A DNA stretch of 57,774 nt from an uncultured virus (IMG/VR IMGVR_UViG_3300025126_000736) (IMGVR_UViG_3300025126_000736), one strand, 5' to 3'; shown: positions 2,934 to 56,973, counted from the stretch's first letter. The notes: a model not told the origin generated them from the sequence alone. Translations and numbers: made by a program.

Positions 2934-3785
2934 TTAAAAACAATTGATTTTTATTTTATTAATCACTGTGTTCTTTATATCATCCATTATTTTATTGTCA
3001 TTTTTAAGCTTCAAAATAAAGTCGTTATCAAATATTGGATCAAAAAAGCCACTAAATATAAAATTAAATAAAATGTTTTTTTCTATATGAGTATAAGTAA
3101 TAATTTTATTAAAAAGACCATTAAATATAAATAATAAATCATTTTTTGAGTAACTAAGTTTATTAAATAAATTATTTTTTTCATCGTGTAAAATAAAATG
3201 ATAAGCAGTGGAAAGTTTATTATTTTGATTAATATATTGTAAATATTTTGGTTCCTTAAGAATAATTTCTTTAAGTAGAGTTAAATTATAAGAGAATGCT
3301 ACATTAATATTAATGCTAATGTTTTCTTCTGTTTCTTGATCAAGTTTAAGAATAATTTCTTTTGGATCAGAATTAGCTTCGATGTGGACGATAGACTCTG
3401 TAAGCTTGGTAAGCCTAATGTAAAAGTAAAAGCTTTTTTCAATAAATGAATTATTTTCAATGTAATCTAAAAAATGTATATGAAGTCTGCTAATAACAGC
3501 CCTTGATGAAGGGATAGGGTATTCAGTTATTAGTTGTTCTTCACCATCGTGCATTCCGTAATATCGAGTTAAGTTTTTATTATAATGGTGTATTCTCCTG
3601 TATTTAGTTCTAGGTTGACTGTCATTAAACTCAAAACAAAGCGTGTTAATGTCAAACCCCATATTTTTTAAAATTTTTAAATTTTTCTCAAAAAATAGAA
3701 TAGTATCCCTTTGAAAGGAAAGTGGAATGCCAGAAAAATTGGCAATAATTTTATTTTCATAACGAATACTTGCAGAAATAGACAT
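2934..3785 (-). CDS. Hypothetical protein with C-terminal K-I-x-x-F motif
   Basis: 283-aa ORF with GGAG SD; ends IKINCF. Confidence 0.6.
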   Translation of the reverse strand: MSISASIRYENKIIANFSGIPLSFQRDTILFFEKNLKILKNMGFDINTLCFEFNDSQPRTKYRRIHHYNKNLTRYYGMHDGEEQLITEYPIPSSRAVISRLHIHFLDYIENNSFIEKSFYFYIRLTKLTESIVHIEANSDPKEIILKLDQETEENISININVAFSYNLTLLKEIILKEPKYLQYINQNNKLSTAYHFILHDEKNNLFNKLSYSKNDLLFIFNGLFNKIITYTHIEKNILFNFIFSGFFDPIFDNDFILKLKNDNKIMDDIKNTVINKIKINCF

Positions 3786-3801: not shown

Positions 3802-4452
3802 TTAAAAACGATTAATATTTGCTATTAAATTGGATACTTTATATCCTTTAATTGTGGTTTCAATCGCATCGTAAAAGTAATCTGAGTTTTCCATATCAAA
3901 ATAATGTAGTATATTTTCTGAGAAATTATTTTTAAGTGAAATAAGTTCTTTTTGACTAAATGTTCTAAATTCATTAAATGCGAAAATCCCAAAAATTTGT
4001 TGCAAATAAGTTACCTTATTAAAGCATTTATGTCGCATAATATTTGTGACAGGGATTTTTTTAATTAGATTAAGTATGAGGAAATCCGATGGTGTTAATT
4101 CTCCCTCAAAATAATATTGAAGCCTATATGCAGAGGGATGTAAGTTGGCGTTGAGAGCAGTAAAAATAAAGGCTCCACCAATGAGAATTGATTTAAAAAA
4201 ATATATGGCATACATAAATGAGAACAAAAATGGGGTGATAGATAATGCAATAAATGCTGGAAGGTAAGAGATCCGCAACGTATGAGAATCAATAGAAAAA
4301 TAACAGAGTGCAGAACAAAAAAACATTGCAATGCTTAATAGGATTAGCTTGTTGAAGCTGCGTAGTAGTTGCTGAGATTTGTCTTTATCACCAATAAGGA
4401 CAGTTAGTAGTTTTGTGTTAATGTATGAAAATGGCATTAGTTTAAGAAACAT
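3802..4452 (-). CDS. Membrane protein with C-terminal N-I-x-x-F motif
   Basis: Hydrophobic N-terminal helices; ends ANINRF. Confidence 0.6.
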   Translation of the reverse strand: MFLKLMPFSYINTKLLTVLIGDKDKSQQLLRSFNKLILLSIAMFFCSALCYFSIDSHTLRISYLPAFIALSITPFLFSFMYAIYFFKSILIGGAFIFTALNANLHPSAYRLQYYFEGELTPSDFLILNLIKKIPVTNIMRHKCFNKVTYLQQIFGIFAFNEFRTFSQKELISLKNNFSENILHYFDMENSDYFYDAIETTIKGYKVSNLIANINRF

Positions 4453-4688: not shown

Positions 4689-6479
4689 TTACTTATCTTG
4701 ATGGTAGTGTCTTATGGCGTGTTCTGTTTGTCTTGCTTCACTAAATGAGTCAACTTTTTTAAGGTATCCAATAACTCGTGTAGCATGTGAAATATTAGTG
4801 CTTTTACAGCAAACGCACTGAGATAATGTTTTTTTGTGAATGTGTCCACAATCATTGCAAACAGTAACCTTAACATTGATGCAGAAGTAGTTACAGCCTT
4901 CTTTTGCTGATGCATTAAAAAGTTTAAGATACTGCTCTTTTGATAGGTAATCGTCAAGATTTAAATGTAATGCAGAACCACCATCTAAGTAACGTGTAAC
5001 TTGTTCGCCATGAACAACAAATTTATCACCAACATGGCATTCTTCATCTTCTACTGCATAAAAGTAAGAATTATAGCAATCTCTTTTTGTGATAAGGCCA
5101 TCTGCTTTATCCCATTTTGCATTTTTGACACCTAAGTTTTCTGCTGGAACAAATTCCGTATTAAACATATATCCAGTTTCAAGTCTTTTGGCTTTGTTTT
5201 TATCATATATGATTTTCAATAATTTTGAGCAAAACTCTTTGTATTCTGGATTGTTTCCTGCTGTGAGTCCTTTAAACTCTGCTGCCTCAACTAAGCCGTT
5301 AATCCCAAGTGTTAAATACTGCTTATCAAGTGTAATAAATCCAGCATCGTAGACGGTAAGCATTTTGGCTTCTTTAAATTCATCCATGATTTTACGGTAT
5401 GCAATTTGATATTTATGGATTTTATCAACTTGCTCACCTAAATCAATATTTTTTTGTATAATACGGTTCATGTTCATTGTGATAACATTAATACTACCAG
5501 TGGCAACACCGCCTGCACCTAAACTGTAAGAGAACTCATTATCATTAAGTTCATTTCTAAGTCTACAGCAGCTTGCAAGGCTATCAACACTATCACTTTG
5601 ATAGATGAAGAAACTATTGCCTTCTGAAAGTTCTATTGCACAAAAATTAGCAAATTCTTTGTTTACAGCCCCATGTTCTTTATCAACAAGCATAGCTGCA
5701 GTAATAACTGGGAAGGTAAGGAGGCTTCTCTCTCTCTCTTTGTTGATCCACTTCATGAACATTTTTTGAAGTTGATTGATTGAGTCCCATTCTGGTTTAG
5801 TAAAATGTTCATCAGGGAATACAAAGTCGCCAAACATACCATTGAAGTATTCTTCATCATAAATAGTGATATTCCAGAAAACAGATTGATAACCACGAGC
5901 TGCTGCTGGTTGATTGATTGAGTAAACAACACTTTCAAAGAATGCTTGGATGGTTTCTTTGTGTTCTGTATGATAATCATCGCCAAAAGATTTTTTTGCA
6001 AAATAATCAAAATACATTAAAAATTCAACAGTTGCGACAGCTCCTGCAAATTGTGATGCAACTGCGAAAATTAAATTAATAAAAGATCCACAGAAACTGG
6101 CTAAATGTTTAGGTGCCTTTGATTCTCCTCCTAATTTTGTAAGACCATCGTGTAAGAATGGATACATATTAATGCTTACGCAGTATGGCTTGAGTGAGGT
6201 TTCGTCATGTACATAAATTTCATGAGATTCAATTTGACGAATATATTCAAGAGCAAGATCTTTGCCATAAAGTTCTTCAATTTTATTGCTAACCATTGTT
6301 CTGTTTACACCAATCATTATATCTTTTGGTAATTCATATTCCATTGTTGCTATATTTTTAGTTACAACGTTTGCATTAGCATCAAATTTTGATGATGATG
6401 CAGCATTTTGTCCTTTCATATAATCTTTAATAAATGCCATTTTTTCATTAATAAATTCTTGCTTGTATTTTTTTAACAT
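4689..6479 (-). CDS. nrdD: Anaerobic (class III) ribonucleoside-triphosphate reductase
   Basis: YVHD and PYC motifs, SCCRL, EFVPAE, C-terminal CxxC...CxxC and TRVIGY glycyl-radical motif. Confidence 0.95.
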   Translation of the reverse strand: MLKKYKQEFINEKMAFIKDYMKGQNAASSSKFDANANVVTKNIATMEYELPKDIMIGVNRTMVSNKIEELYGKDLALEYIRQIESHEIYVHDETSLKPYCVSINMYPFLHDGLTKLGGESKAPKHLASFCGSFINLIFAVASQFAGAVATVEFLMYFDYFAKKSFGDDYHTEHKETIQAFFESVVYSINQPAAARGYQSVFWNITIYDEEYFNGMFGDFVFPDEHFTKPEWDSINQLQKMFMKWINKERERSLLTFPVITAAMLVDKEHGAVNKEFANFCAIELSEGNSFFIYQSDSVDSLASCCRLRNELNDNEFSYSLGAGGVATGSINVITMNMNRIIQKNIDLGEQVDKIHKYQIAYRKIMDEFKEAKMLTVYDAGFITLDKQYLTLGINGLVEAAEFKGLTAGNNPEYKEFCSKLLKIIYDKNKAKRLETGYMFNTEFVPAENLGVKNAKWDKADGLITKRDCYNSYFYAVEDEECHVGDKFVVHGEQVTRYLDGGSALHLNLDDYLSKEQYLKLFNASAKEGCNYFCINVKVTVCNDCGHIHKKTLSQCVCCKSTNISHATRVIGYLKKVDSFSEARQTEHAIRHYHQDK

Positions 6480-7145: not shown

Positions 7146-7826
7146 TTAAAAATCATTAATCTTATTTGATAAAAGTTTTGTTCTAAGTGACGGTATTGAG
7201 TTAATAAAATTAATATATTCTGCTGGTGAAAGTAAATAGAATGAATCAGGATTAATAAAGTGATTGTTAATGAAGCTGAGTTCTTCATTGTTGAAATTAT
7301 ATTGGTTTGTTATGAGATATTGCTGGTATATAAGTAAGTAAATGTCAAGAGTTGCTGGCTTTAACGAAAAAATACAAGAATAAAGATCTTTTACTGGCAT
7401 ATTTTTTGATAGAATAGATGAGAGTTCAAAAGAAATCTCATTTCTAGTATAGCAAATTTCTTTGGAATGCTTTGATGCTACTTTTTTAAAAAAAACTCTA
7501 TAAATATAGTGTGGAATGAAAAAAGTTAAAAAGAAGGTTTTCTTTGAACGTAATGCAATGATACATTCGGTTAACTCATTTAGGGAGTTGAGTTGGTTTT
7601 TAGGAAATTTAATAACAAAAAAACAAATGGATATTATATTTAAAGTGACTATATTGAGTATGAAATGTGAATAGGAAGTATTTAAATAAATAAAAATCAA
7701 GTTAATGAAAAAAGTAATGGATATTGTTAATATAATATGGGTAATTAAACACATGAATTTAAAGTTAATAAAGTTATTGTCGGCTAAAAAAAGAAGGCAC
7801 TCTTGTTTGTTTATAAATTTTGTCAT
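7146..7826 (-). CDS. Membrane protein with C-terminal K-I-x-x-F motif
   Basis: Two N-terminal TM segments; ends NKINDF. Confidence 0.55.
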   Translation of the reverse strand: MTKFINKQECLLFLADNNFINFKFMCLITHIILTISITFFINLIFIYLNTSYSHFILNIVTLNIISICFFVIKFPKNQLNSLNELTECIIALRSKKTFFLTFFIPHYIYRVFFKKVASKHSKEICYTRNEISFELSSILSKNMPVKDLYSCIFSLKPATLDIYLLIYQQYLITNQYNFNNEELSFINNHFINPDSFYLLSPAEYINFINSIPSLRTKLLSNKINDF

Positions 7827-8027: not shown

Positions 8028-8103
8028 TGGTGGGTGTGGAGGGATTCGAACCCACGACCTTCAGGTTAAAAGCCTGTTGCTCTACCAACTGAGCTACACA
8101 TCC
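8028..8103 (-). tRNA. tRNA-Lys(UUU), type A
   Basis: Cloverleaf GGATGTG...; anticodon arm ACAGG-CT-TTT-AA-CCTGA; encoded CCA. Confidence 0.95.
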
Positions 8104-8117
8104 AAAAAAAATAAAAC

Positions 8118-8193
8118 TGGTAGGCGCGGTGAGGTTCGAACTCACGACCAACTGGTTAAAAGCCAGATGCTCTACCAACTGAGCTACACGCCT
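8118..8193 (-). tRNA. tRNA-Lys(UUU), type B
   Basis: Cloverleaf AGGCGTG...; TCTGG-CT-TTT-AA-CCAGT; CCA. Confidence 0.95.
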
Positions 8194-8203
8194 AAAATAA
8201 AAC

Positions 8204-8279
8204 TGGTGGATGCGGTGGGGGTCGAACCCACGACCTTCAGGTTAAAAGCCTGTTGCTCTACCAACTGAGCTACACATCC
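8204..8279 (-). tRNA. tRNA-Lys(UUU), type A
   Basis: Tandem copy, TTT anticodon, CCA. Confidence 0.95.
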
Positions 8280-8293
8280 AAAAAAAATAAAAC

Positions 8294-8369
8294 TGGTAGG
8301 CGCGGTGAGGTTCGAACTCACGACCAACTGGTTAAAAGCCAGATGCTCTACCAACTGAGCTACACGCCT
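8294..8369 (-). tRNA. tRNA-Lys(UUU), type B
   Basis: Tandem copy, TTT anticodon, CCA. Confidence 0.95.
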
Positions 8370-8379
8370 AAAATAAAAC

Positions 8380-8455
8380 TGGTGGATGCGGTGGGGGTCG
8401 AACCCACGACCTTCAGGTTAAAAGCCTGTTGCTCTACCAACTGAGCTACACATCC
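8380..8455 (-). tRNA. tRNA-Lys(UUU), type A
   Basis: Tandem copy, TTT anticodon, CCA. Confidence 0.95.
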
Positions 8456-8468
8456 AAAAAAATAAAAC

Positions 8469-8544
8469 TGGTAGGCGTGGTGAGGTTCGAACTCACGACC
8501 AACTGGTTAAAAGCCAGATGCTCTACCAACTGAGCTACACGCCT
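8469..8544 (-). tRNA. tRNA-Lys(UUU), type B
   Basis: First Lys copy in transcription order, TTT anticodon, CCA. Confidence 0.95.
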
Positions 8545-8549
8545 AAAAT

Positions 8550-8581
8550 AAAAAACCCAAAGAAATATATATTCCTTTGGG
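8550..8581 (-). terminator. Attenuator-type intrinsic terminator directly 5' of the tRNA-Lys block
   Basis: CCCAAAGGAA-loop-TTTCTTTGGG-TTTTTT on the minus strand. Confidence 0.85.
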
Positions 8582-8634
8582 CTAAACAAAACACCTAAAG
8601 GCTACTTATTCGTAGCCTTTATATAGACTACTTT

Positions 8635-8673
8635 TTATGGTTTCTTTGATTTTTTAGATTTAAAAGTTTTCAT
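8635..8673 (-). CDS. Putative Lys-sensing leader peptide MKTFKSKKSKKP
   Basis: AAGGA SD; 6 of 12 codons Lys (5 AAA, 1 AAG); followed by alternative hairpins, a terminator and 6 tRNA-Lys. Confidence 0.75.
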   Translation of the reverse strand: MKTFKSKKSKKP

Positions 8674-8713
8674 TATATAGTTTCCTTAAATTTTGATTTA
8701 ATTTTATTAAAAT

Positions 8714-8778
8714 TGGTTGGGGTAGTAGGATTCGAACCTACGACTATTAAGCACTTTAACCGCCCAAGCTCTACCCCA
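8714..8778 (-). ncRNA. 65-nt tRNA-like RNA lacking a normal anticodon arm
   Basis: 7-bp acceptor TGGGGTA/TACCCCA, T-arm GTAGG-TTCGAAT-CCTAC, D-like arm, ACCA end; only 11 nt between D and T arms. Confidence 0.65.
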
Positions 8779-8797
8779 AATTGTGTTACATTAAAAC

Positions 8798-8872
8798 TGG
8801 CGGGGAAGGTAGGATTTGAACCTACGACCTATCGGTTAACAGCCGACTGCTCTACCACTGAGCTACATCCCC
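8798..8872 (-). tRNA. tRNA-Asn(GUU)
   Basis: GGGGATG... GTCGG-CT-GTT-AA-CCGAT ... G73-CCA. Confidence 0.95.
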
Positions 8873-8892
8873 AAATTGTGTTACATTAAAAC

Positions 8893-8967
8893 TGGCGGGG
8901 AAGGTAGGATTTGAACCTACGACCTATCGGTTAACAGCCGACTGCTCTACCACTGAGCTACATCCCC
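8893..8967 (-). tRNA. tRNA-Asn(GUU)
   Basis: Copy in 95-bp-period array. Confidence 0.95.
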
Positions 8968-8987
8968 AAATTGTGTTACATTGAAAC

Positions 8988-9062
8988 TGGCGGGGAAGGT
9001 AGGATTTGAACCTACGACCTATCGGTTAACAGCCGACTGCTCTACCACTGAGCTACATCCCC
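8988..9062 (-). tRNA. tRNA-Asn(GUU)
   Basis: Copy in 95-bp-period array. Confidence 0.95.
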
Positions 9063-9082
9063 AAATTATATTACATTAAAAC

Positions 9083-9157
9083 TGGCGGGGAAGGTAGGGC
9101 TTGAACCTACGACCTATCGACATATCACCGAGTGCTCTACCACTGAGCTACATCCCC
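9083..9157 (-). tRNA. tRNA-Asn-derived variant with non-canonical anticodon loop (UGAUAUG)
   Basis: Body near-identical to tRNA-Asn; anticodon arm CTCGG-TGATATG-TCGAT. Confidence 0.75.
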
Positions 9158-9177
9158 AAATTATATTACATTAAAAC

Positions 9178-9252
9178 TGGCGGGGAAGGTAGGGCTTGAA
9201 CCTACGACCTATCGACATATCACCGAGTGCTCTACCACTGAGCTACATCCCC
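9178..9252 (-). tRNA. tRNA-Asn-derived variant with non-canonical anticodon loop
   Basis: Same variant as 9083..9157. Confidence 0.75.
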
Positions 9253-9272
9253 AAATTGTATTACATTAAAAC

Positions 9273-9347
9273 TGGCGGGGAAGGTAGGACTTGAACCTAC
9301 GACCTATCGGTTAACAGCCGACTGCTCTACCACTGAGCTACATCCCC
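9273..9347 (-). tRNA. tRNA-Asn(GUU)
   Basis: GTT anticodon, CCA. Confidence 0.95.
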
Positions 9348-9367
9348 AAATTATATTACATTAAAAC

Positions 9368-9442
9368 TGGCGGGGAAGGTAGGGCTTGAACCTACGACCT
9401 ATCGACATATCACCGAGTGCTCTACCACTGAGCTACATCCCC
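9368..9442 (-). tRNA. tRNA-Asn-derived variant with non-canonical anticodon loop
   Basis: Same variant as 9083..9157. Confidence 0.75.
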
Positions 9443-9462
9443 AAATTATATTACATTAAAAC

Positions 9463-9537
9463 TGGCGGGGAAGGTAGGGCTTGAACCTACGACCTATCGA
9501 CATATCACCGAGTGCTCTACCACTGAGCTACATCCCC
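9463..9537 (-). tRNA. tRNA-Asn-derived variant with non-canonical anticodon loop
   Basis: Same variant as 9083..9157. Confidence 0.75.
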
Positions 9538-9557
9538 AAATTGTATTACATTAAAAC

Positions 9558-9632
9558 TGGCGGGGAAGGTAGGACTTGAACCTACGACCTATCGGTTAAC
9601 AGCCGACTGCTCTACCACTGAGCTACATCCCC
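9558..9632 (-). tRNA. tRNA-Asn(GUU)
   Basis: First copy in transcription order, GTT anticodon. Confidence 0.95.
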
Positions 9633-9639
9633 AAAATAT

Positions 9640-9677
9640 AAAAAAACCCAAAAACTTTATTAATTAGTCTTTGGGTT
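9640..9677 (-). terminator. Attenuator-type terminator directly 5' of the tRNA-Asn block
   Basis: AACCCAAAGACT-loop-AGTTTTTGGGTT-TTTTT. Confidence 0.85.
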
Positions 9678-9724
9678 GATAACAAAGACTGCGATTTCGT
9701 TTCGCAGTCAAAAAAGAAACTGCG

Positions 9725-9769
9725 CTAAATATTTAAATTTCGTTTATTATTCTTATTAAGTGTTTTCAT
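9725..9769 (-). CDS. Putative Asn(/Lys)-sensing leader peptide MKTLNKNNKRNLNI
   Basis: TAAGGT SD; 5 AAT codons and 3 Lys codons in 14; followed by alternative hairpins and a terminator. Confidence 0.7.
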   Translation of the reverse strand: MKTLNKNNKRNLNI

Positions 9770-9814
9770 TTTTTTAGTTACCTTATATGTTTGTTGTCTT
9801 GCTTTATGTTTTAC

Positions 9815-9843
9815 ATTATTACACGTTAATTTAAGTCTGTCAA
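9815..9843 (-). promoter_or_regulatory. Sigma70-type inner promoter of the Asn/Lys tRNA operon
   Basis: TTGACA-17 bp-(TGT)AATAAT; IHF-like ATTCAAACACTTA at 9870..9882. Confidence 0.7.
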
Positions 9844-9921
9844 GCTTTTTTTAAAAATATTTTCAATTAATTCAAACACTTAAAAAAAATAAAAGAGTAG
9901 TGTCGATAATTAAAACGCAAT

Positions 9922-9954
9922 AAAAAACCTCTTAAAATTTCTTCCAAGAGGTTT
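9922..9954 (-). terminator. Terminator of outer Asn attenuator
   Basis: AAACCTCTTGGAA-loop-TTTTAAGAGGTTT-TTT. Confidence 0.75.
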
Positions 9955-10002
9955 AGAGTAAACGACTTGGAAGTTTTGGCTCCCAAGTATTGTTTTTTTA
10001 TT

Positions 10003-10080
10003 TTACAAAAGACAATAGGAAGTCATAACAATATTTTTATTGTTATTTATCTTATTATTTTTTGAAAAACTAAATGACAT
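10003..10080 (-). CDS. Putative outer Asn(/Lys)-sensing leader peptide MSFSFSKNNKINNNKNIVMTSYCLL
   Basis: TAAGGGT SD; KNNKINNNKN run; followed by alternative hairpins and a terminator. Confidence 0.7.
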   Translation of the reverse strand: MSFSFSKNNKINNNKNIVMTSYCLL

Positions 10081-10111
10081 AATGTTACCCTTATTTATTA
10101 AACTTAACTAT

Positions 10112-10140
10112 ATTATATATGACGAAAAAAATAAAGTCAA
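10112..10140 (-). promoter_or_regulatory. Sigma70-type outer promoter of the Asn/Lys tRNA operon
   Basis: TTGACT-17 bp-TATAAT. Confidence 0.75.
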
Positions 10141-10154
10141 CACAAAAAAACTAA

Positions 10155-10460
10155 TTAATTAAAATCCGATAGATTTTTTTTACCAAAAATTACGAATTCT
10201 ACATTACTGATAATGCTTGGTAACAGATTTTTTAAATTTGACTTAACAATAAGTGTGAAAAGTGCGCGTTGCTCATTTGAAACATCCATTAATGAAATTA
10301 AAGCATCATCCATCCGACTATGATCTTTTTCTTCATGATGATTATTAACATAATTAAGTGAGGTTAATAATCGAAGCCAATTAATCTGCTCATTACGATA
10401 AGAAGCATGAGAAAACACAGTACGAACAACTTGATTAATTTCAGTGTTTTTATTTAACAT
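10155..10460 (-). CDS. Hypothetical protein with C-terminal N-L-x-x-F(N) motif
   Basis: AAGGA SD; ends KNLSDFN. Confidence 0.55.
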   Translation of the reverse strand: MLNKNTEINQVVRTVFSHASYRNEQINWLRLLTSLNYVNNHHEEKDHSRMDDALISLMDVSNEQRALFTLIVKSNLKNLLPSIISNVEFVIFGKKNLSDFN

Positions 10461-10514
10461 TAGTTTTTATTCCTTTTGTAAAGCGAAGAAAGAAAATAGA
10501 GTAAAGTAATTAAG

Positions 10515-10889
10515 TTATTTAAAAATAGAAAAATTGAATTTTTCTGCAAGAATGCGCAATATAAATTTAAACTTATATAAGAATAAAGCTGGAAGTGAAA
10601 ATGGAATAATAAAAGCTAATATACCTAAAATAAATGATATAGTTCCTGTAATATCATCACTAATTATAAAGTATTTAAAAACATTGGCTATTAATGTATT
10701 ACTAACAGTGCTAAGTAAAGTGCCTAAATAAAAAGAAATTAGACAGCTTGCGGAAAATCCAATGATGGAAATAAAGTAAACCATTGAATATTCTTTTACT
10801 TTAATAAAAAGTTCTGGCTTAATTTTTGATAATGCTAAAAGGCATAAACTTATTGATATAAAGAGAACGGTAAGAAATTTAATAATCAT
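10515..10889 (-). CDS. Small membrane protein
   Basis: Three hydrophobic segments from MIIKFL (start moved from 11009). Confidence 0.5.
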   Translation of the reverse strand: MIIKFLTVLFISISLCLLALSKIKPELFIKVKEYSMVYFISIIGFSASCLISFYLGTLLSTVSNTLIANVFKYFIISDDITGTISFILGILAFIIPFSLPALFLYKFKFILRILAEKFNFSIFK

Positions 10890-10902
10890 CAGTTTTTTCC
10901 TA

Positions 10903-11085
10903 TTACGCCTTAGAAGAATCTTGGATGTGACTCTTTTTATTGTCAATATTTTTTCGCTTTTTATCTTGAAAAACGGCACTTTTAAAATTATGAACAAGAT
11001 CGTAGGCAATAGAGTTTCTTGCAGAACCTTTTATTTTTTCTGCTTTTGCCAATTCTTCTTTATTAAAAACCTTAGTTTTAGACAT
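10903..11085 (-). CDS. Small basic protein, weak ArfA-like pattern
   Basis: KG..RN.IA.DL..NF...V..DKK pattern, by eye. Confidence 0.35.
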   Translation of the reverse strand: MSKTKVFNKEELAKAEKIKGSARNSIAYDLVHNFKSAVFQDKKRKNIDNKKSHIQDSSKA

Positions 11086-11162
11086 TTTTTTACTCTTTTT
11101 TTAATGGTGTTGTTGAATTAAAATAATTATACCATTAAATAAGGTAAGAGTATAGTGTTGTA

Positions 11163-11564
11163 TTAGATATTATTTTTGGATTGCTCTTCAATCTCTTTCA
11201 TATATTCCCAAATAGATATTACATCGCGGGAAAATAAATCTGAACTATCAAAAAAAATAACTCTTGATTGTATTTCATTAAATGTGTAAAAATTTTGAGT
11301 AGTAGGGTTAATTTCTCTAACAATTAAAGAAAAAGCACCAGTAAGAAAAGAAGAACCAAGTCCATAATCGCAATCTAAATCAATAGATATCATTTCTTTT
11401 GTGCAATTAAGCTTTGGAAGAAAGATGTTATTTAAAAAAAAGTAACCTGAGTTTTTGCCATCATTTTTTTCCATTCCAAAGGGCGTCTTTGAAAAATCAT
11501 TTGTTAGGCTAATGTGGATCACAATAATACTCCAAATTAAAATGGCTATTAAAAAAATAGCCAC
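11163..11564 (-). CDS. STAS-like (DUF4325-type) protein
   Basis: DFSKTPFG...DG..SG and IDLD..YGLGSSFL..AF pattern. Confidence 0.55.
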   Translation of the reverse strand: MAIFLIAILIWSIIVIHISLTNDFSKTPFGMEKNDGKNSGYFFLNNIFLPKLNCTKEMISIDLDCDYGLGSSFLTGAFSLIVREINPTTQNFYTFNEIQSRVIFFDSSDLFSRDVISIWEYMKEIEEQSKNNI

Positions 11565-11574
11565 AAAATATTAA

Positions 11575-12201
11575 TTATTGAACAATGGGTAAAATAAAGT
11601 CAAGAGTTTGCATATCTTCTGTCAACGTGTGAATAGTGACTTTATCTCGAAGGAAATCAATAACAGGTTCTGTCTTTTTAGTGTATTGAGATAGTCGAGT
11701 TTTAAGTGTTTCTGCATTGTCATCTACCCGTTGAGAGACTTCACCACCACAACTATCACAAACACCGTCTATTTTAGGTTGTAATGTGGTTTTATTATAT
11801 GAGTCACCACAGACTTTACAACAAAGTCGATTAGATACTCGCTTAATAATGGCACTATCTGGCATATTAAGATAAAGGACGACAATGTTATTAAGATCAG
11901 ATCTTAAAGAAAGTAATAGCTCTGCTTGACTTACTGAACGAGGGAAACCATCAAAAACAATATGGTTGTCTTTGAGCGATTCAATTTTGCTTTTCATCAT
12001 ACCATTCATGATGTGACTGCTAATTAGTTCTCCTGTTTTTAGGGCGTGAGTCGCCTCTTTATAATAGGGCGCAGATTCTGTTGTTGAATTCTCTCTAAGG
12101 ACATTGCTTCCACTAATATGAGCGTATTTTTCATTAAGTAAGAGCTTTGCTAATGTTCCTTTTCCGCTGCAAGGTTTACCAATTAAAATAATGTCTTTCA
12201 T
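11575..12201 (-). CDS. adk: Adenylate kinase with Zn lid
   Basis: GKPCSGKGT P-loop, HISG..LR, DGFPR, CxxC...CxxC lid, RVDD. Confidence 0.9.
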   Translation of the reverse strand: MKDIILIGKPCSGKGTLAKLLLNEKYAHISGSNVLRENSTTESAPYYKEATHALKTGELISSHIMNGMMKSKIESLKDNHIVFDGFPRSVSQAELLLSLRSDLNNIVVLYLNMPDSAIIKRVSNRLCCKVCGDSYNKTTLQPKIDGVCDSCGGEVSQRVDDNAETLKTRLSQYTKKTEPVIDFLRDKVTIHTLTEDMQTLDFILPIVQ

Positions 12202-12316
12202 AAATAATACATCCTAAGTAAGTTGAGTGGTAATTATACCGAAAATTAAAGTAAATAACAACATTAAATTATTAATATTAATGTTTAATCGAAGTAAGAT
12301 CTGGAGCCAAGCTAGA

Positions 12317-12598
12317 TTAGTATGAAAAGTCCATTATTTTTTGCTGCACTTGCAATTTTTTTAATGAATGATGGTCTGGAAAGTAAATTTTTCCTAATAA
12401 ATAAGTAAAGTCAATACTTGTTTGAATAATATAGAGATCACAATAATAAGGACTAATGACTGTGCCAAAATTACGACCAACACCAACAGTGGAAAGGACA
12501 TTAGATAGTCGGAATTGTAAAGAAAACATTTCTTTAGAACTAATTTGATTTAGTTGTGCTGATTGTCGAATAAGTTTTTTAAATTCTTTTGAGATCAA
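12317..12598 (-). CDS. Hypothetical protein, paralog of the 12595..13143 C-terminal half
   Basis: Shared LSTxGxGxNFG...YxCD...SID; ends QKIMDFSY. Confidence 0.55.
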   Translation of the reverse strand: MISKEFKKLIRQSAQLNQISSKEMFSLQFRLSNVLSTVGVGRNFGTVISPYYCDLYIIQTSIDFTYLLGKIYFPDHHSLKKLQVQQKIMDFSY

Positions 12599-13196: not shown

Positions 13197-13991
13197 TTAA
13201 CGAGTTATTTTACACATATGAACTTCGTTTTTTGATTGAAAATACTCAACATTTTTAATATATTTTTTTTCAATAAGCTCATTGTTTGCCTTTTTTATTT
13301 CTTGATTTAGGTGCTTAGGTTGCATATTGTTTTTTCCAAGTCTGTAGCCTAATTTGTTCATTGAAAAATTAACAGATTCTTGATTAATAAATTTGAATGT
13401 TTCATAAAATAAAAATAATGCACGAGCATATTGAGATTTAATACTGCTAAATATTTCAAGATTTAAGACTTCATAATCCAGAGTTTGTTCCGCATTAAAT
13501 AAATCATCTGAGATTTCTATTTGAAATATTTTTGCTTTAACATTCCATTCAACTCGATTAATGAGATTAGAATAAATTTTGTGAGACACTTCGCCTTCTT
13601 CATTAAATTTTTCAATTTGAAAGAAACAACTCATCATTTTTTTTATACGATCATCAATATCTTTTTTATTGCTTTTTCTATTTTGAATGCCAAGGCTTTT
13701 AATAATTTCATACTCAGTTAACTCAAACTTTTTAGAACCAGTAATTTGTTTTTTTCTCATAATAATGTGAAATAAAGGGTAGTCACGTTGAAGATCAAGT
13801 TTCCAACCAGAAAAAGAAATTCGTTCACTTTTACTTCTGGAAAGTTCGAAGTCAAACATTTCTTTTGTTTTGCTCATTTTTCTTTCAACTGGTGAAAATA
13901 TAGGTGTCGCAGCTAATGATGACGGAATGAGAGCTTCCCCTTTAAAAAGATAATTATGTTTTATATTTTTGTTGTTTACGATATTTTCCAT
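13197..13991 (-). CDS. repA: Plasmid replication initiator (RepA/TrfA-like)
   Basis: IP..L...PIFSP and FSGWKLDLQRD motifs resemble IncFIB/P1 RepA and TrfA; iteron array directly upstream. Confidence 0.75.
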   Translation of the reverse strand: MENIVNNKNIKHNYLFKGEALIPSSLAATPIFSPVERKMSKTKEMFDFELSRSKSERISFSGWKLDLQRDYPLFHIIMRKKQITGSKKFELTEYEIIKSLGIQNRKSNKKDIDDRIKKMMSCFFQIEKFNEEGEVSHKIYSNLINRVEWNVKAKIFQIEISDDLFNAEQTLDYEVLNLEIFSSIKSQYARALFLFYETFKFINQESVNFSMNKLGYRLGKNNMQPKHLNQEIKKANNELIEKKYIKNVEYFQSKNEVHMCKITR

Positions 13992-18271: not shown

Positions 18272-18766
18272 TTAAAACTTATTTATTTTTGTATGCATTT
18301 TATGAGCAATTTCAACCTCTTTTAGTGATTCAAATGGCTCCCCTAAGTACCAAAACCGACTATTATCAAGTGAGTCAGAACCATAATAACCATCTATAAT
18401 GGCGCAGCTATTATGCCTGCTAAGTAATCCGTTATGAAAAGATCTATCCTCTTTTGTAAGCTCAAGATTATAGGAGTGAGGATAGGTTTTGTATAATGAA
18501 ATGAATTGATAAGTAATGTTATCAATAATAACAGTTTCAGGAGCAGACCAAAATTCCAAAAATGTAGATAGATAGTGTTTTTTATATAATAGATATATTG
18601 TAAAACCAATTGGTAAAAAAAATAAAATAGAAGTAATGATTTTTAATTCAAAAATAAAATAAAACAAATATGTAATTGTAATAAATATAGACACGATTGT
18701 ATACTTAATCAATTTAAGATGTTTTTTTATATTGCTTACATTTGAATAATCTGACAAATTTTTCAA
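18272..18766 (-). CDS. Membrane protein, paralog of 19374..19886
   Basis: Two TM helices; shared FWS.P.TV.I.NITYQFI; ends TKINKF. Confidence 0.65.
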   Translation of the reverse strand: MKNLSDYSNVSNIKKHLKLIKYTIVSIFITITYLFYFIFELKIITSILFFLPIGFTIYLLYKKHYLSTFLEFWSAPETVIIDNITYQFISLYKTYPHSYNLELTKEDRSFHNGLLSRHNSCAIIDGYYGSDSLDNSRFWYLGEPFESLKEVEIAHKMHTKINKF

Positions 18767-24461: not shown

Positions 24462-24549
24462 TGGCAGAAGGTGTGAGATTCGAACTCACGGAGGAGTAAC
24501 CCTCGCTGATTTTCAAGACCAATGCCATAAACCGCTCGGCCAACCTTCT
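24462..24549 (-). tRNA. tRNA-Ser(UGA)
   Basis: Long variable arm; CT-TGA-AA loop; GCCA. Confidence 0.9.
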
Positions 24550-24554
24550 AAATT

Positions 24555-24630
24555 TGGGGTGAATGACGGGACTCGAACCCGCAACCATCTGGATCACAAC
24601 CAGAAGCTCTGCCATTGAGCTACAAGCACC
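24555..24630 (-). tRNA. tRNA-His(GUG)
   Basis: G-1/C73; TT-GTG-AT loop; two acceptor mismatches. Confidence 0.85.
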
Positions 24631-24644
24631 ATTGTGTGTAAATC

Positions 24645-24686
24645 TGGTGAAAAGGGAGGCCACTTAAACCACTCATGCACCTTTCC
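24645..24686 (-). pseudogene. Internally deleted tRNA-Ser (acceptor plus D arm only)
   Basis: Deletion between repeated CCTCCCT segments. Confidence 0.8.
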
Positions 24687-24700
24687 AAAATATATAAAAC

Positions 24701-24790
24701 TGGAGGAAGATAAGGGATTCGAACCCTTGTGCCGATCACTCGACCAACTGTTTTCAAGACAGAGCTAATAAGCCACTCTAGCAATCTTCC
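24701..24790 (-). tRNA. tRNA-Ser(UGA)
   Basis: GGAAGAT acceptor; CT-TGA-AA loop; long variable arm. Confidence 0.9.
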
Positions 24791-24808
24791 AAAATATGTA
24801 ACTAAATT

Positions 24809-24899
24809 TGGTGGAAAGGGAGGGATTCGAACCCTCGTGCCGATTTCTCGACTCACTCCTTAGTAGGGAGGCCATTTAAGCCAGCTCATGCACCTTTCC
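24809..24899 (-). tRNA. tRNA-Ser(ACU), A34 variant of Ser(GCU)
   Basis: CCTCC-CT-ACT-AA-GGAGT; otherwise identical to 25022..25112. Confidence 0.8.
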
Positions 24900-24913
24900 A
24901 AAATATATAAAAC

Positions 24914-25003
24914 TGGAGGAAGATAAGGGATTCGAACCCTTGTGCCGATCACTCGACCAACTGTTTTCAAGACAGAGCTAATAAGCCACTCTAGCAATCT
25001 TCC
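24914..25003 (-). tRNA. tRNA-Ser(UGA)
   Basis: CT-TGA-AA loop; long variable arm. Confidence 0.9.
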
Positions 25004-25021
25004 AAAATATGTAACTAAATT

Positions 25022-25112
25022 TGGTGGAAAGGGAGGGATTCGAACCCTCGTGCCGATTTCTCGACTCACTCCTTAGCAGGGAGGCCATTTAAGCCAGCTC
25101 ATGCACCTTTCC
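25022..25112 (-). tRNA. tRNA-Ser(GCU)
   Basis: CT-GCT-AA loop; long variable arm. Confidence 0.9.
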
Positions 25113-25126
25113 AAAATATATAAAAC

Positions 25127-25216
25127 TGGAGGAAGATAAGGGATTTGAACCCTCGTGCCGATTTCTCGACCATCTGTTTTCCAAACAGAGCTAATAAGCC
25201 ACTCTAGCAATCTTCC
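25127..25216 (-). tRNA. tRNA-Ser(GGA)
   Basis: TT-GGA-AA loop. Confidence 0.85.
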
Positions 25217-25234
25217 AAAATATGTAATTAAATC

Positions 25235-25324
25235 TGGTGGAAAGGGAGGGATTCGAACCCTCGTGCCGATTTCTCGACTCACTCCTTAGCAGGGAGGCCA
25301 CTTAAACCACTCATGCACCTTTCC
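25235..25324 (-). tRNA. tRNA-Ser(GCU)
   Basis: CT-GCT-AA loop. Confidence 0.9.
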
Positions 25325-25338
25325 AAAATATATAAAAC

Positions 25339-25428
25339 TGGAGGAAGATAAGGGATTTGAACCCTTGTGCCGATTTCTCGACCATCTGTTTTCCAAACAG
25401 AGCTAATAAGCCACTCTAGCAATCTTCC
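25339..25428 (-). tRNA. tRNA-Ser(GGA)
   Basis: TT-GGA-AA loop. Confidence 0.9.
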
Positions 25429-25446
25429 AAAATATGTAATTAAATC

Positions 25447-25488
25447 TGGTGGAAAGGGAGGCCACTTAAACCACTCATGCACCTTTCC
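25447..25488 (-). pseudogene. Internally deleted tRNA-Ser (acceptor plus D arm only)
   Basis: Same deletion as 24645..24686. Confidence 0.8.
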
Positions 25489-25502
25489 AAAATATATAAA
25501 AC

Positions 25503-25592
25503 TGGAGGAAGATAAGGGATTTGAACCCTTGTGCCGATCACTCGACCAACTGTTTTCAAGACAGAGCTAATAAGCCACTCTAGCAATCTTCC
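25503..25592 (-). tRNA. tRNA-Ser(UGA)
   Basis: CT-TGA-AA loop. Confidence 0.9.
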
Positions 25593-25606
25593 AAAATATG
25601 TAAATC

Positions 25607-25694
25607 TGGCAGAAGATGTGAGATTCGAACTCACGGAGGAGTAACCCTCGCTGGGTTTCAAGACCAGTGCCATAAACCGCTCGGCCAATCTTCT
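25607..25694 (-). tRNA. tRNA-Ser(UGA)
   Basis: AGAAGAT acceptor; CT-TGA-AA loop; GCCA. Confidence 0.88.
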
Positions 25695-25699
25695 AAATT

Positions 25700-25775
25700 T
25701 GGGGTGCATGACGGGACTCGAACCCGCAACCATCTGGATCACAACCAGAAGCTCTGCCATTGAGCTACAAACACC
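25700..25775 (-). tRNA. tRNA-His(GUG)
   Basis: G-1/C73; TT-GTG-AT loop. Confidence 0.9.
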
Positions 25776-25789
25776 ATTGTATGTAAATA

Positions 25790-25880
25790 TGGTGGAAAGG
25801 GAGGGATTCGAACCCTCGTGCCGATTTTTCGGCTCACTCCTTAGCAGGGAGGCCATTTAAGCCATCTCATGCACCCTTCC
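25790..25880 (-). tRNA. tRNA-Ser(GCU)
   Basis: First in transcription order; CT-GCT-AA loop. Confidence 0.9.
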
Positions 25881-25890
25881 AAAATTTCAT

Positions 25891-25926
25891 AAAAAACCCT
25901 CTTTAAGTGTAACCTAAAGAGGGTTT
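25891..25926 (-). terminator. Attenuator-type terminator directly 5' of the Ser/His tRNA block
   Basis: AAACCCTCTTTAGG-loop-CTTAAAGAGGGTTT-TTT. Confidence 0.88.
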
Positions 25927-25976
25927 CTTTAAGGTTAGTTTATCAATGACAAACTAACCTATATAGAGGTAGTCTA

Positions 25977-26039
25977 TCAAATATGTTTGCTACTCGAATG
26001 TAGCGAATAAGCGCTGTAATGTGAATTAATGTTTTTCAT
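25977..26039 (-). CDS. Putative Ser/His-sensing leader peptide MKNINSHYSAYSLHSSSKHI
   Basis: AAGGT SD; 6 Ser and 3 His codons in 20; followed by alternative hairpins and a terminator. Confidence 0.82.
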   Translation of the reverse strand: MKNINSHYSAYSLHSSSKHI

Positions 26040-26081: not shown

Positions 26082-26110
26082 ATTATGTCATGTAAAAATC
26101 ATTATGTCAA
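26082..26110 (-). promoter_or_regulatory. Sigma70-type inner promoter of the Ser/His tRNA operon
   Basis: TTGACA-17 bp-(TGA)CATAAT; IHF consensus match AATCAATGACTTA at 26137..26149. Confidence 0.75.
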
Positions 26111-26190
26111 TAGTTTTTTTAAATATTTTTCAATTAAATCAATGACTTAAAATAAAAATAGCATTACCCCTCATTAATAAAAAAATGCAT

Positions 26191-26223
26191 AAAAAAAACC
26201 TTGAAGTTTTGCCTTCAAGGTTT
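26191..26223 (-). terminator. Terminator of outer Ser/His attenuator
   Basis: AAACCTTGAAG-loop-CTTCAAGGTTT-TTTTT. Confidence 0.85.
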
Positions 26224-26280
26224 AAAATTGCAATAATTTTATGTTGAAGGCTTGTCTTGACAAACCTTCGTAAACGAAGT

Positions 26281-26364
26281 TTAAGTTTGCATTAGACATA
26301 GGAAAACGGAACTAGAAGAACTAGAACTCGAATGACTATGTGAATGTGCTTTAAAATTAAACAT
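26281..26364 (-). CDS. Putative outer Ser/His-sensing leader peptide MFNFKAHSHSHSSSSSSSSVFLCLMQT
   Basis: AAGGCG SD; 13 consecutive His/Ser codons using mixed Ser codons (TCA, AGT, TCG, TCT, TCC); hairpins and a terminator follow. Confidence 0.85.
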   Translation of the reverse strand: MFNFKAHSHSHSSSSSSSSVFLCLMQT

Positions 26365-34023: not shown

Positions 34024-34713
34024 TTACTTCTTCATGTAACTTGGTTTAGTATTGCTATTTAGTTCACCATTTTTTTCAACATTTTTAAGCCAATGTTCTG
34101 AATTGATCTGAACGTGATCTTTTCTAACCCATTTTGCTAAATATTTCGTTGAGTCTTCACGCCTAAACCCCTTGACAGTGCGAACAACAAAACCTTCCAT
34201 AACGTCAGTGTCAATATTTGCAGCCAATTCTTTAAGAATTTTTTCAGAATATATTCCGCGATACAATACTTTTGGTGTAGGCAAATCAAGTTTATTTGCA
34301 TATTCAATAATAGAATCATAATCCAAACAAAAATCAGTCCCGTCTTCAAGATCTTGCCATACTGAAAATAAGTAAAAGTAGCCTTCTAAATAGTTGTCTG
34401 GGTAGCCTATTGTGTGTTTACCCCATAGGTTCTCACCGACTAACTTAATGTCATTGGGGATTAAAAATCGCATACAAGAATGCATAGTGGCGACCCAAGA
34501 TCGAGTGAAATTATAGACGCTATCAAGCGAACGAGCATGATATCCATCAGTGTAACAAGTAGTGCATTCACCATCTAATTTTTCACTTACAACAACTTCT
34601 TCGTCTTCGAAATATTCAAGTGTTTCGATAATCTTGTCATCAGATTGAACACCTTGACTATAAGGGAGATGGTATGATCTAATGTATTTTATTTTAATTG
34701 CTGACTGTTCCAT
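34024..34713 (-). CDS. RNA ligase family nucleotidyltransferase
   Basis: Motif I SEKLDGE, GEN, EGFVVR, KWVRKDHVQ. Confidence 0.85.
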   Translation of the reverse strand: MEQSAIKIKYIRSYHLPYSQGVQSDDKIIETLEYFEDEEVVVSEKLDGECTTCYTDGYHARSLDSVYNFTRSWVATMHSCMRFLIPNDIKLVGENLWGKHTIGYPDNYLEGYFYLFSVWQDLEDGTDFCLDYDSIIEYANKLDLPTPKVLYRGIYSEKILKELAANIDTDVMEGFVVRTVKGFRREDSTKYLAKWVRKDHVQINSEHWLKNVEKNGELNSNTKPSYMKK

Positions 34714-40436: not shown

Positions 40437-40955
40437 TTAACTATTTTTTAATGGTATATTAGGTAATGCACCGTACTTATTAATATACCATTCTTTTGTT
40501 ACGGTTCTAATTCTATCTATCTCATCAAGTATCCATCGGTATTCTTCCTTATTAACAATATGCTCACCTTGAACATAAAAATGTTCTAAAGGTAAGTCAG
40601 TTGATATAAGTTGCATAAGTATTTGTTTGTGTGTGCGTAACTTGCACTGAATGCATTCTAAAATAAATTGCTTAAAACGGTCTGAAATAGGTGTGGATTC
40701 TTCAAGCCATTCTTTTGGTATAACTCTTCTGCCTTCTTTTTTTGCTGCGCCCCCACTTAATAAGCGAAGTTGTTCATGTATTTTTCCTGTAAGAAAATAA
40801 TAAAATGCACCTTCAATGCTATTGAAATTACCTAGTGACGGGTGGGTGAAAGGAGTGTGGGCAAAATTACTAAGATTTTGTCCAAGTGTGGTTTGTCCCT
40901 TACTATATACATTAATAAATAGTATACCATCATTTAATATATTGAGCTTTGACAT
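40437..40955 (-). CDS. NADAR-like (T4 gp30.3/YbiA-type) protein
   Basis: LSNFAHTPF...FNSIEG...LSG..AKKEGR...K....L..T..LPL.H.YV. Confidence 0.65.
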   Translation of the reverse strand: MSKLNILNDGILFINVYSKGQTTLGQNLSNFAHTPFTHPSLGNFNSIEGAFYYFLTGKIHEQLRLLSGGAAKKEGRRVIPKEWLEESTPISDRFKQFILECIQCKLRTHKQILMQLISTDLPLEHFYVQGEHIVNKEEYRWILDEIDRIRTVTKEWYINKYGALPNIPLKNS

Positions 40956-56307: not shown

Positions 56308-56973
56308 TTAAGAAGGATAACCTTCTATAACGCTAGTCCAATCATTAAGCCTATCATTTGAACTATTTTTAAAGACGAACATATCTTTACGTCTAATTTT
56401 ACACATTCTTCCATCTGGATGATGAAAAACAATACCTTCTACATAATTATTAAATAACCATTTTTTTATACCGTCATAGGTGAGTAAAATATCATTAATT
56501 TCCTCTGCACCGTGTGGGACTAATTTGTGGCCTTTAATATTATAAATATTATTCTGAACTTTTTCTCCAATAAGCTCGTAGGTTGCACCCTCAATAAGAA
56601 CAGGATGTAAACTTAATGCTTCTTGGAACCATCTATCCTCTGGACTATCCGTTACTTCTACCCAAAAAGGCTGGTGAAAGGTAATAGGATCAGGTAATTG
56701 ACAAGCAATAGCACCTAATGGTAAATCTTTAAACATATGATCTTCTATTGCAAGTTTTCCACCTAATCGTTTATTCTTAAGTGAAAACTTTTTGCGCAAT
56801 TTGCGATCAAATCGTTTATGTAATTTTCCATTAAGAAAAATAGCTGCGGTACCGTCAATTTTAACGGTTGCCTTACCTTCTCCATTAATAGCCCATTGAC
56901 ACTCTTCTCGAACAATCTCTGTAACAAGATTAGTGTCATAGTTCATTTCAAACAATGTTTTCATTTTCTTCAT
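56308..56973 (-). CDS. RNA-ligase-like nucleotidyltransferase (DUF5565-like)
   Basis: TVKIDGT, TYELIG, EGIVF, KIRRKD. Confidence 0.75.
   Translation of the reverse strand: MKKMKTLFEMNYDTNLVTEIVREECQWAINGEGKATVKIDGTAAIFLNGKLHKRFDRKLRKKFSLKNKRLGGKLAIEDHMFKDLPLGAIACQLPDPITFHQPFWVEVTDSPEDRWFQEALSLHPVLIEGATYELIGEKVQNNIYNIKGHKLVPHGAEEINDILLTYDGIKKWLFNNYVEGIVFHHPDGRMCKIRRKDMFVFKNSSNDRLNDWTSVIEGYPS

Follow-up and report, generated by a model that had tools for sequence, protein, structure and literature searches.

The tRNA-Asn genes in the stretch of DNA analysed here (57,774 nucleotides, recorded in IMG/VR as the uncultured virus IMGVR_UViG_3300025126_000736 and called the window throughout) are preceded by two tandem units that, on the features tested by computation, are supported as leader-peptide attenuators. 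We consider it very probable that they constitute two ribosome-dependent attenuators in series, which would hold the supply of tRNA under feedback control. All three tRNA arrays of the window (Asn, Lys and Ser/His) are headed by leaders rich in their own amino acids, and on seven megaplasmids of Vibrio and Pseudomonas, tRNA arrays are likewise headed by matched leaders.

Two tandem leader units ahead of the tRNA-Asn genes

Both units lie on the minus strand and share a common layout, in which a promoter-like site and an SD-like motif are followed by a short leader ORF and by five segments, A to E, that can pair in alternative ways, the last pairing, D:E, being an intrinsic terminator with a T tract (Table 1). 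The leader ORFs, all ten segments and both terminators, with tails of six T in the outer and seven T in the inner unit, were found at the places given in the original prediction, as were the eight perfect pairs that it had described for the C:D helix of each unit. The computed energies of the A:B, B:C, C:D and D:E helices are -9.3, -11.2, -14.4 and -13.6 kcal/mol in the outer unit, and -10.2, -11.3, -7.1 and -13.4 kcal/mol in the inner unit, just past whose terminator the first tRNA-Asn starts at 9632.

Table 1. Positions of the features discussed in the text; positions are those of the window unless a locus is named
Feature	Positions	Strand	Remarks
Outer promoter-like site P1, sigma70-type	10112-10140	-	11/12 consensus, 17-nt spacer; predicted
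Outer SD-like motif	about 10092-10088	-	upstream of outer leader ORF
Outer leader ORF, 25 codons	10080-10003	-	6 Asn and 3 Lys, all in codons 7-16
Outer segment A	10012-10022	-	in last codons of leader; partner B
Outer segment B	9980-9993	-	partner A or C
Outer segment C	9965-9973	-	partner D (antiterminator) or B
Outer segment D	9951-9941	-	from sequence anatomy
Outer segment E	9937-9928	-	then six T at 9927-9922
Outer intrinsic terminator D:E	9922-9954	-	six-T tail
A/T tract shared by inner promoters of Asn / Ser/His arrays	about 9844-9872 / 26110-26140	-	
Inner promoter-like site P2, sigma70-type	9815-9843	-	11/12 consensus, extended -10, A/T tract upstream; predicted
Inner SD-like motif	9784-9780	-	upstream of inner leader ORF
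Inner leader ORF, 14 codons	9769-9725	-	5 Asn and 3 Lys
Inner segment A	about 9718-9724	-	directly after stop codon; pairs with B
Inner segment B	9702-9709	-	pairs with A or C
Inner segment C	9683-9694	-	pairs with B or D
Inner segment D	9675-9666	-	from sequence anatomy
Inner segment E	9656-9647	-	then seven T at 9646-9640
Inner intrinsic terminator D:E	9640-9677	-	seven-T tail, ends 8 nt before first tRNA
Array of nine 95-bp units	8798-9632	-	five tRNA-Asn(GUU), four identical altered copies
Altered tRNA-Asn copies	9463-9537, 9368-9442, 9178-9252, 9083-9157	-	anticodon arm disturbed or rearranged
Degenerate tRNA-like unit	8714-8778	-	38.7 bits; between Asn array and Lys leader
Third, internal Lys unit	8545-8673	-	12-codon leader 8673-8635 with 6 Lys; hairpin 8621-8596; terminator 8583-8554
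Six tRNA-Lys(UUU) genes	8028-8544	-	distal to Lys leader
Outer Ser/His unit	26188-26364	-	leader 26364-26281, 13/26 Ser or His; terminator about 26223-26196
Inner Ser/His unit	25888-26039	-	leader 26039-25977, 9/19 Ser or His; terminator about 25925-25895
13 tRNA genes (11 Ser, 2 His)	24462-25880	-	downstream of the two Ser/His units
ORF of orphan 264-aa protein	13197-13991	-	resembles Rep3/TrfA plasmid initiators by language-model features
RNA ligase genes (RNA_ligase, RLIG1)	34024-34713 and 56308-56973	-	Pfam
Proteins with final-Phe motif	2934-3785, 3802-4452, 7146-7826, 18272-18766	-	by eye
T-box and four tRNA-Asn genes, uncultured Bacilli-like genomes	L205 7-594; L064 302-898		Rfam

The proposal that each unit has a sigma70-like promoter of its own agrees with what the sequence offers: both candidate sites match 11 of the 12 consensus positions and score best among the 17 promoter-like sites found in 9000-12500, a count that is uninformative by itself because shuffled sequences give about as many (mean 15.6). 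The Asn and Ser/His arrays have inner promoters with a near-identical A/T tract upstream of the -35 box, which resembles a UP element or a shared operator.

The leaders had been described as rich in both Asn and Lys, and of this description the Asn part stands. Asn accounts for 5 of the 13 residues after the start codon in the inner leader (p=0.004) and for 6 of 24 in the outer one (p=0.016), against 8.8% in the codon usage of the window, where Lys stands at 9.5% and Ser at 7.8%. Lys taken alone (3 of 13, p=0.12, in the inner leader; 3 of 24, p=0.41, in the outer) is within chance because the element is Lys-rich; the two residues together make up 8 of the 13 in the inner leader (p=7e-4). Asn carries the leader signal, and a separate sensing of Lys is unsupported by the Lys counts. 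One might still suppose, from the 28.5% G+C of the window, its high background of Asn and Lys and the unexceptional Lys content of the leaders, that these are chance ORFs of AT-rich DNA, and that the hairpins act as leaky terminators that form constitutively, or as processing stems, and so keep tRNA at a fixed level. We regard this as extremely improbable: of 701 small ATG ORFs examined across the window, only 3 show an Asn enrichment at p<=0.016, two of them being the outer and inner leaders, and the Ser/His, Glu/Asp/Arg, Pro/Gln/Trp and Leu/Ser/Tyr/His leaders described below precede arrays of matching content, also on plasmids of about 53-55% G+C.

A probable operon of tRNA-Asn and tRNA-Lys genes

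The label of tRNA-Asn array, under which the downstream genes had been introduced, holds for five of the nine units, which are tRNA-Asn(GUU), while the other four are altered copies. The latter differ from tRNA-Asn at 9 of 75 positions, score 53 bits in Rfam as opposed to 75-77 bits, and lack a folded anticodon arm in their MFE structure, on which ground the label of tRNA-Tyr (Tyr-ATA) given to them by ARAGORN was rejected. Their reading as tRNA-Ile, by which Ile would join Asn and Lys among the sensed residues, was also set aside, the fit (p=0.05 outer, 0.003 inner) being weaker in both units than that of Asn and Lys. A slip of one base in the altered copies would expose a GAU triplet. As candidate readings, they might be pseudogenes spread by tandem duplication, or else decoys; a contig with the altered copy occurs in two RNA runs and a DNA run, at a depth similar to that of the normal unit.

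Beyond the array lies a degenerate tRNA-like unit, in which the acceptor arm, a D-like arm, the T arm and a terminal CCA are recognisable and the anticodon arm is almost entirely lacking. It is followed by a third, internal unit with a Lys-rich leader, for which no promoter of its own was found and whose switch does not beat shuffles (p=0.54), and then by the tRNA-Lys genes. As the stretch from the Asn array to the Lys leader yielded neither a minus-strand promoter-like site nor a terminator, the tRNA-Asn and tRNA-Lys genes probably form one operon, in keeping with the combined Asn and Lys content originally ascribed to it.

Alternative folds and the predicted switch

In both units the MFE folds computed for the two states are the named helices, that is, A:B with C:D in one state and B:C with D:E in the other. 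C:D and D:E share segment D, and C:D, which belongs to the MFE fold when A is free, is more competitive than in shuffled sequences (p=0.03 and 0.02). When the energies of the antiterminated and terminated states were compared directly, the gap between them shifted by 5.3 kcal/mol in the inner unit (p=0.02) and by 5.5 kcal/mol in the outer unit (p=0.03) as the modelled ribosome was taken off the cognate codons and placed at the stop; in 60 shuffles the mean shift was -0.1 and 0.4, respectively. The ribosome footprint in the fold model, to +12, is an assumed value. In an inner transcript cut before E, segment D is predicted to be paired with upstream RNA at a probability of 0.62 when the ribosome is stalled on the cognate codons, of 0.22 once it has reached the stop and of 0.20 if no ribosome is present; the corresponding outer transcript has no switch (0.84, 0.82 and 0.81, respectively). 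In the folding energetics, which the original prediction had put forward as a check, both units show the shift at full length, and the outer unit shows no change when cut before E.

Because C:D persists in the outer unit before E even when the ribosome is at the stop, its switch needs either an order of folding or the energy balance of the full-length transcript, and it would probably rely on B:C forming before D is made. This persistence, in which C:D outcompetes B:C before E is made, combined with the modest Asn enrichment of the outer leader, could be taken to mean that only the inner unit is functional, the outer one being weaker or decayed, or representing a separate small transcript whose terminator insulates the operon. 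We think this quite unlikely, given that the outer unit has all five segments, a significant energy shift, a good promoter-like site and an SD-like motif, and that paired units also head the Ser/His array of the window and the arrays in loci L032, L041, L049, L061 and L278.

Returning to two functional attenuators, comparable switches are predicted in many of the units from other arrays. The energy shift reaches p<=0.05 in 11 of 19 units and falls short of it in 8, and 5 of 8 further plasmid units have the switch at this level. Inspected by eye, most of 27 units would form A:B and C:D if A is free, and B:C and D:E if the stop is covered, with A located at or just after the stop. A clear antiterminator is absent by eye from three of the 27, namely the Lys unit and the inner Ser/His unit of the window and one Vibrio unit.

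A second tandem pair at the Ser/His array

Sixteen kb from the Asn/Lys units, a further pair of units heads the Ser/His array of the window, with leaders that are enriched in these residues at p=2e-7 and 3e-5. AT-richness does not explain this match. The three arrays of the window, each with leaders rich in its own amino acids, amount to an internal replication of the design.

Two truncated tRNA-Ser units in this array (about 25448-25487 and 24650-24690, minus strand) look by eye like short-direct-repeat deletions. An A at the wobble position of a tRNA is rare in bacteria; genes of this kind were seen for Ser (ACU) at 24809-24899 on the minus strand of the window, and for Ala (AGC) and Thr (AGU) at 5524-5599 and 7200-7275 of the Vibrio plasmid locus L032.

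The same design on Vibrio and Pseudomonas megaplasmids

For plasmids, we used a pipeline that takes clusters of at least three tRNAs with a terminator at most 750 bases upstream and selects the best small ORF ending 10-130 bases before the terminator. The first set comprised 14 clusters from the plasmids of V. vulnificus FORC_036, of V. parahaemolyticus 16-VB00198 and of Pseudomonas FeN3W and from pMPPla107; an upstream terminator was present at 10 of them, and all 10 of these had a matched leader at p<0.01 (here and below uncorrected, with each leader the best of 1-8 candidates per terminator), arranged as tandem paired units in 4. A prediction fixed beforehand was then tested on 11 clusters of pPL1 and pBASL58, two plasmids found via a window protein, where a terminator lay within 260 nt at 6 clusters and the leader reached an uncorrected p<0.01 at 5 of these; the sixth leader gave p=0.024, or 5.5e-4 once a split array was joined. 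Leader control is not universal, as 4 of the 14 clusters of the first set and 5 of the 11 on pPL1 and pBASL58 have no nearby terminator.

The compositions of these leaders are diverse. At L032, 40 of 40 and 32 of 33 leader residues fall within an 11-amino-acid set ahead of a 43-gene array, and a third Vibrio plasmid has two leaders with the same peptides. Others are of the Leu/Ser/Tyr/His (L049), Glu/Asp/Arg (L056, L061) and GTG-started Pro/Gln/Trp (L048) types. The plasmid units are mutually related, two of them being identical, and unit counts thus overstate their independence. When 19 units were compared with 13 arrays, the own array was the best match of the leader in 17 and the second best in 2, a result with some circularity, given that this match had served to choose the leaders; the outer Asn leader, whose p of 0.016 missed the 0.01 cut, had been added to the unit set by its coordinates. 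A codon-level test that is independent of the leader-selection match, and that applies our own wobble rules and counts related units separately, found 64 of 66 informative leader codons to be readable by the anticodons of their own array, against 50.9 expected (z about 4). Furthermore, all five amino-acid differences between the V. vulnificus and V. parahaemolyticus leaders end inside the set of the array.

Six Glu/Asp/Arg units from Pseudomonas plasmids show covariation in their A:B helix, which is 90.5% paired with 4 of its 7 pairs changed on both sides; its score, for a structure read from the same six sequences, was reached by none of 500 shuffles and lies above all slid registers. It is from these plasmid units that the covariation comes, as no close relative of the window units was found. 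The recurrence of the design at other arrays, the identity of the named helices with the MFE folds and the excess of the energy shift over shuffles together support, as far as modelling goes, the attenuator reading with which the analysis began.

Real attenuators might, alternatively, sense a general failure of translation, as caused by antibiotics, ribosome damage or lost coupling, with the amino-acid match being secondary. In most plasmid units the no-ribosome fold resembles the stalled state, so that read-through would follow whenever the ribosome fails to reach the stop, and the trn operon of Anabaena is likewise induced by translational stress (PMC8421152). What makes this alternative unlikely is that the match follows array content at both the amino-acid and the codon level, which a general sensor would not need, and that the inner unit of the window is predicted to terminate in the absence of a ribosome. 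We thus retain the sensing of specific tRNAs as the preferred reading.

Control clusters of the Asn type, mostly chromosomal and drawn from 207 loci (106 metagenome and 101 genome matches), had a matched leader in 0 of 65 cases, with a terminator in 32 and a candidate ORF in only 8; this control is weak because most loci hold just 230-271 upstream bases and few candidate ORFs. Five further clusters, on chromosome-like segments, an E. coli plasmid and a Vibrio phage, had no matched leader.

Some additional observations concern the plasmid arrays themselves. On the V. vulnificus plasmid, a second promoter-like site was noted by eye downstream of the Pro/Gln/Trp attenuator (L048, about 1300-1680), and an Arg/Met array was seen with a promoter-like site and no attenuator (L050, about 1770-1835); judged by eye, attenuated and unattenuated inputs would seem to coexist on this plasmid. 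A gene with a GatB/YqeY domain lies just downstream of a large mixed tRNA array both in Vibrio (L032, 8581-8991) and on pMPPla107 (L040, 7790-8203).

The element and its relatives

The sequence of the element is present in aquifer metagenome runs. Pfam matches among 52 ORFs include NrdD/NrdG, adenylate kinase, two RNA ligases, ankyrin, Sel1 and IscB/TnpB-like proteins, while 3 of 25 ORFs scanned with PHROGs match families of unknown function; no virion family is found among either set of matches. An orphan protein with features of plasmid initiators (Table 1) gave no tblastn match in plasmids. The protein encoded at 40437-40955 has only four plasmid matches, all of them Pseudomonas megaplasmids of 0.9-1.2 Mb that include pMPPla107 and pBASL58, and one of the same four is the best plasmid match of NrdD; viral contigs match both proteins about as well, four of them in the case of 40437-40955. 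Relatives of NrdD in viral contigs are 39-62% identical, and 5 of the 28 loci scanned have no tRNA. On these grounds a megaplasmid-like replicon seems a reasonably better reading of the element than a jumbo phage. A similar short C-terminal motif with a final Phe was noticed by eye in several unrelated hypothetical proteins of the window, and is possibly a shared C-terminal signal.

Searches of plasmids, phages, viral contigs and metagenomes found no close relative of the element. A blastn search with 8500-10200 against plasmids and phages returned, among the matches listed, only tRNA bodies, with no record covering 80%; a 25-base tRNA pattern occurs at six viral loci, none of which has the design, and its tandem version was not found in metagenomes. 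From three RNA runs and one DNA run queried with 9540-11340, a contig of RNA run X22 (234 bases) spans 9606-9839 without differences, crosses the inner terminator and extends past the predicted inner start by about 30 bases on the upstream side; since contigs reveal neither strand nor transcript ends, and the run may contain DNA, it counts neither for nor against the proposed transcript.

Proposed feedback control of tRNA supply

In the mechanism that we favour, RNA polymerase would start at P1 or P2 and a ribosome would translate the short leader. With an ample supply of charged tRNA-Asn (and, with less certainty, of tRNA-Lys), the ribosome would reach the stop and cover A, upon which B:C and D:E would form and transcription would terminate before the tRNA genes. 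A ribosome that is slow on the Asn-rich codons would let A:B and C:D form, no terminator would arise, and the tRNA-Asn units would be transcribed. Polymerase that has passed these units would, if the genes are co-transcribed, meet the third, Lys-rich leader before the tRNA-Lys genes. Transcripts from P1 would have to pass both gates and might thus provide extra output only under stronger shortage; the loop would be self-limiting, since the product of the operon is the very molecule being sensed. Relief of a shortage of tRNA is a more likely purpose than relief of amino-acid starvation, because extra tRNA would not cure a lack of the amino acid. Such a shortage might stem from the AT-rich element loading its host with Asn, Lys and Ser codons, or from cleavage of tRNA by nucleases; the element's two RNA ligase genes, which possibly act in tRNA repair, fit a tRNA-damage setting and prove nothing.

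More generally, we posit that giant plasmids likely run a modular tRNA homeostat, in which one or two leader ORFs precede each tRNA operon and use the codons decoded by the tRNAs of that operon, so that each module would detect loss or overload of exactly these and refill the pool. To the question of why plasmids and phages carry large tRNA arrays, and when these come into use, codon burden, stress and the replacement of tRNAs cleaved by defence nucleases are candidate answers. A leader written in the codons of its own array is a built-in readout of the signal to which the array responds, and makes the question testable, all the more as the same putative switches, each under 250 bases, are found on sequenced plasmids of cultured Pseudomonas and Vibrio. 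If the homeostat is real, a megabase element would offset its codon burden and answer the anticodon nucleases of its host automatically, and the units would be natural single- or multi-codon sensors of tRNA availability that could be used as reporters.

Comparison with known systems

Large tRNA arrays of mobile elements have been considered before from other angles. The plasmid family of pMPPla107 and pBASL58 carries 44-54 tRNA genes, which were proposed to offset tRNA depletion (PMC6482414); the terms 'attenuat' and 'leader' do not occur in the accessible portion of that paper. The window differs from these plasmids in being far more AT-rich (28.5% G+C) and in having protein identities of only 35-61%, and since viral contigs also match about as well, its membership in the family is not established. 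The trn operon of Anabaena sp. PCC 7120 is a horizontally spread extra set of tRNAs, an 'L-array' that is normally quiet and is induced when translation is impaired; it is regulated at initiation, by means of direct repeats that cover the -10 box and the start site and of a presumed repressor, and 'attenuat', 'leader' and 'terminat' are absent from the text of that article as available (PMC8421152). It is one mixed array, whereas those of the window and the plasmids are amino-acid-specific modules, and no direct repeats of the Anabaena style over the -10 box are evident by eye at the window promoters.

On the side of attenuation, the accessible parts of a genome-wide survey of attenuators hold no passage on tRNA genes as targets, a reporter aside (PMC2965389), and we found no published account of leader-peptide attenuation of tRNA genes among the matches listed, which come mostly from outside subscription journals. 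No leader family of Rfam matches the window, nor L032, L040, L049 or L061 among the matches listed (150 of 161). What appears new is the array-by-array modular control, the recurring tandem layout and the codon-level matching, on plasmids of cultured bacteria. The leader of Salmonella mgtCBR also has two short ORFs, each expected to affect stem-loops and transcription, as described in the accessible text (PMC3641672); in that system the genes under control encode proteins, whereas the two units of the window read the same codons and are each preceded by a promoter-like site.

The feedback logic has a parallel in the T-box, in which tRNA status sets the choice between terminator and antiterminator, according to the available text (PMC7778990), and which, unlike the window units, binds uncharged tRNA directly and needs no translation. 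Control of the window by a T-box was rejected, as RF00230 has no match there at the gathering score while the same model matched four control loci. Among 20 loci scanned against Rfam, two (L205 and L064) have a T-box directly upstream of four tandem tRNA-Asn genes; this tRNA operon is apparently controlled by its own uncharged tRNA, and would thus follow the same feedback logic as the window units by another mechanism. L196, L228 and L237 look similar to these two loci.

The closest counterparts are the classical leader-peptide attenuators of trpL, hisL and pheL, where, in the portion of the source available, slow decoding of leader codons brings about read-through (PMC1183508), and with which the present units share the short leader ORF, the regulatory codons, the alternative hairpins and the intrinsic terminator. 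Unlike the attenuators of amino-acid operons, they have five segments with A at or just after the stop, and their leaders may list 11-12 amino acids. Multivalent leaders as such are known from thrL and ilvGMEDA. The main difference lies in what is controlled, namely tRNA genes, the output being the sensed molecule and not a biosynthetic enzyme; if the proposed mechanism is true, textbook attenuation would extend from the enzymes of amino-acid synthesis to direct feedback on the transcription of tRNA genes.
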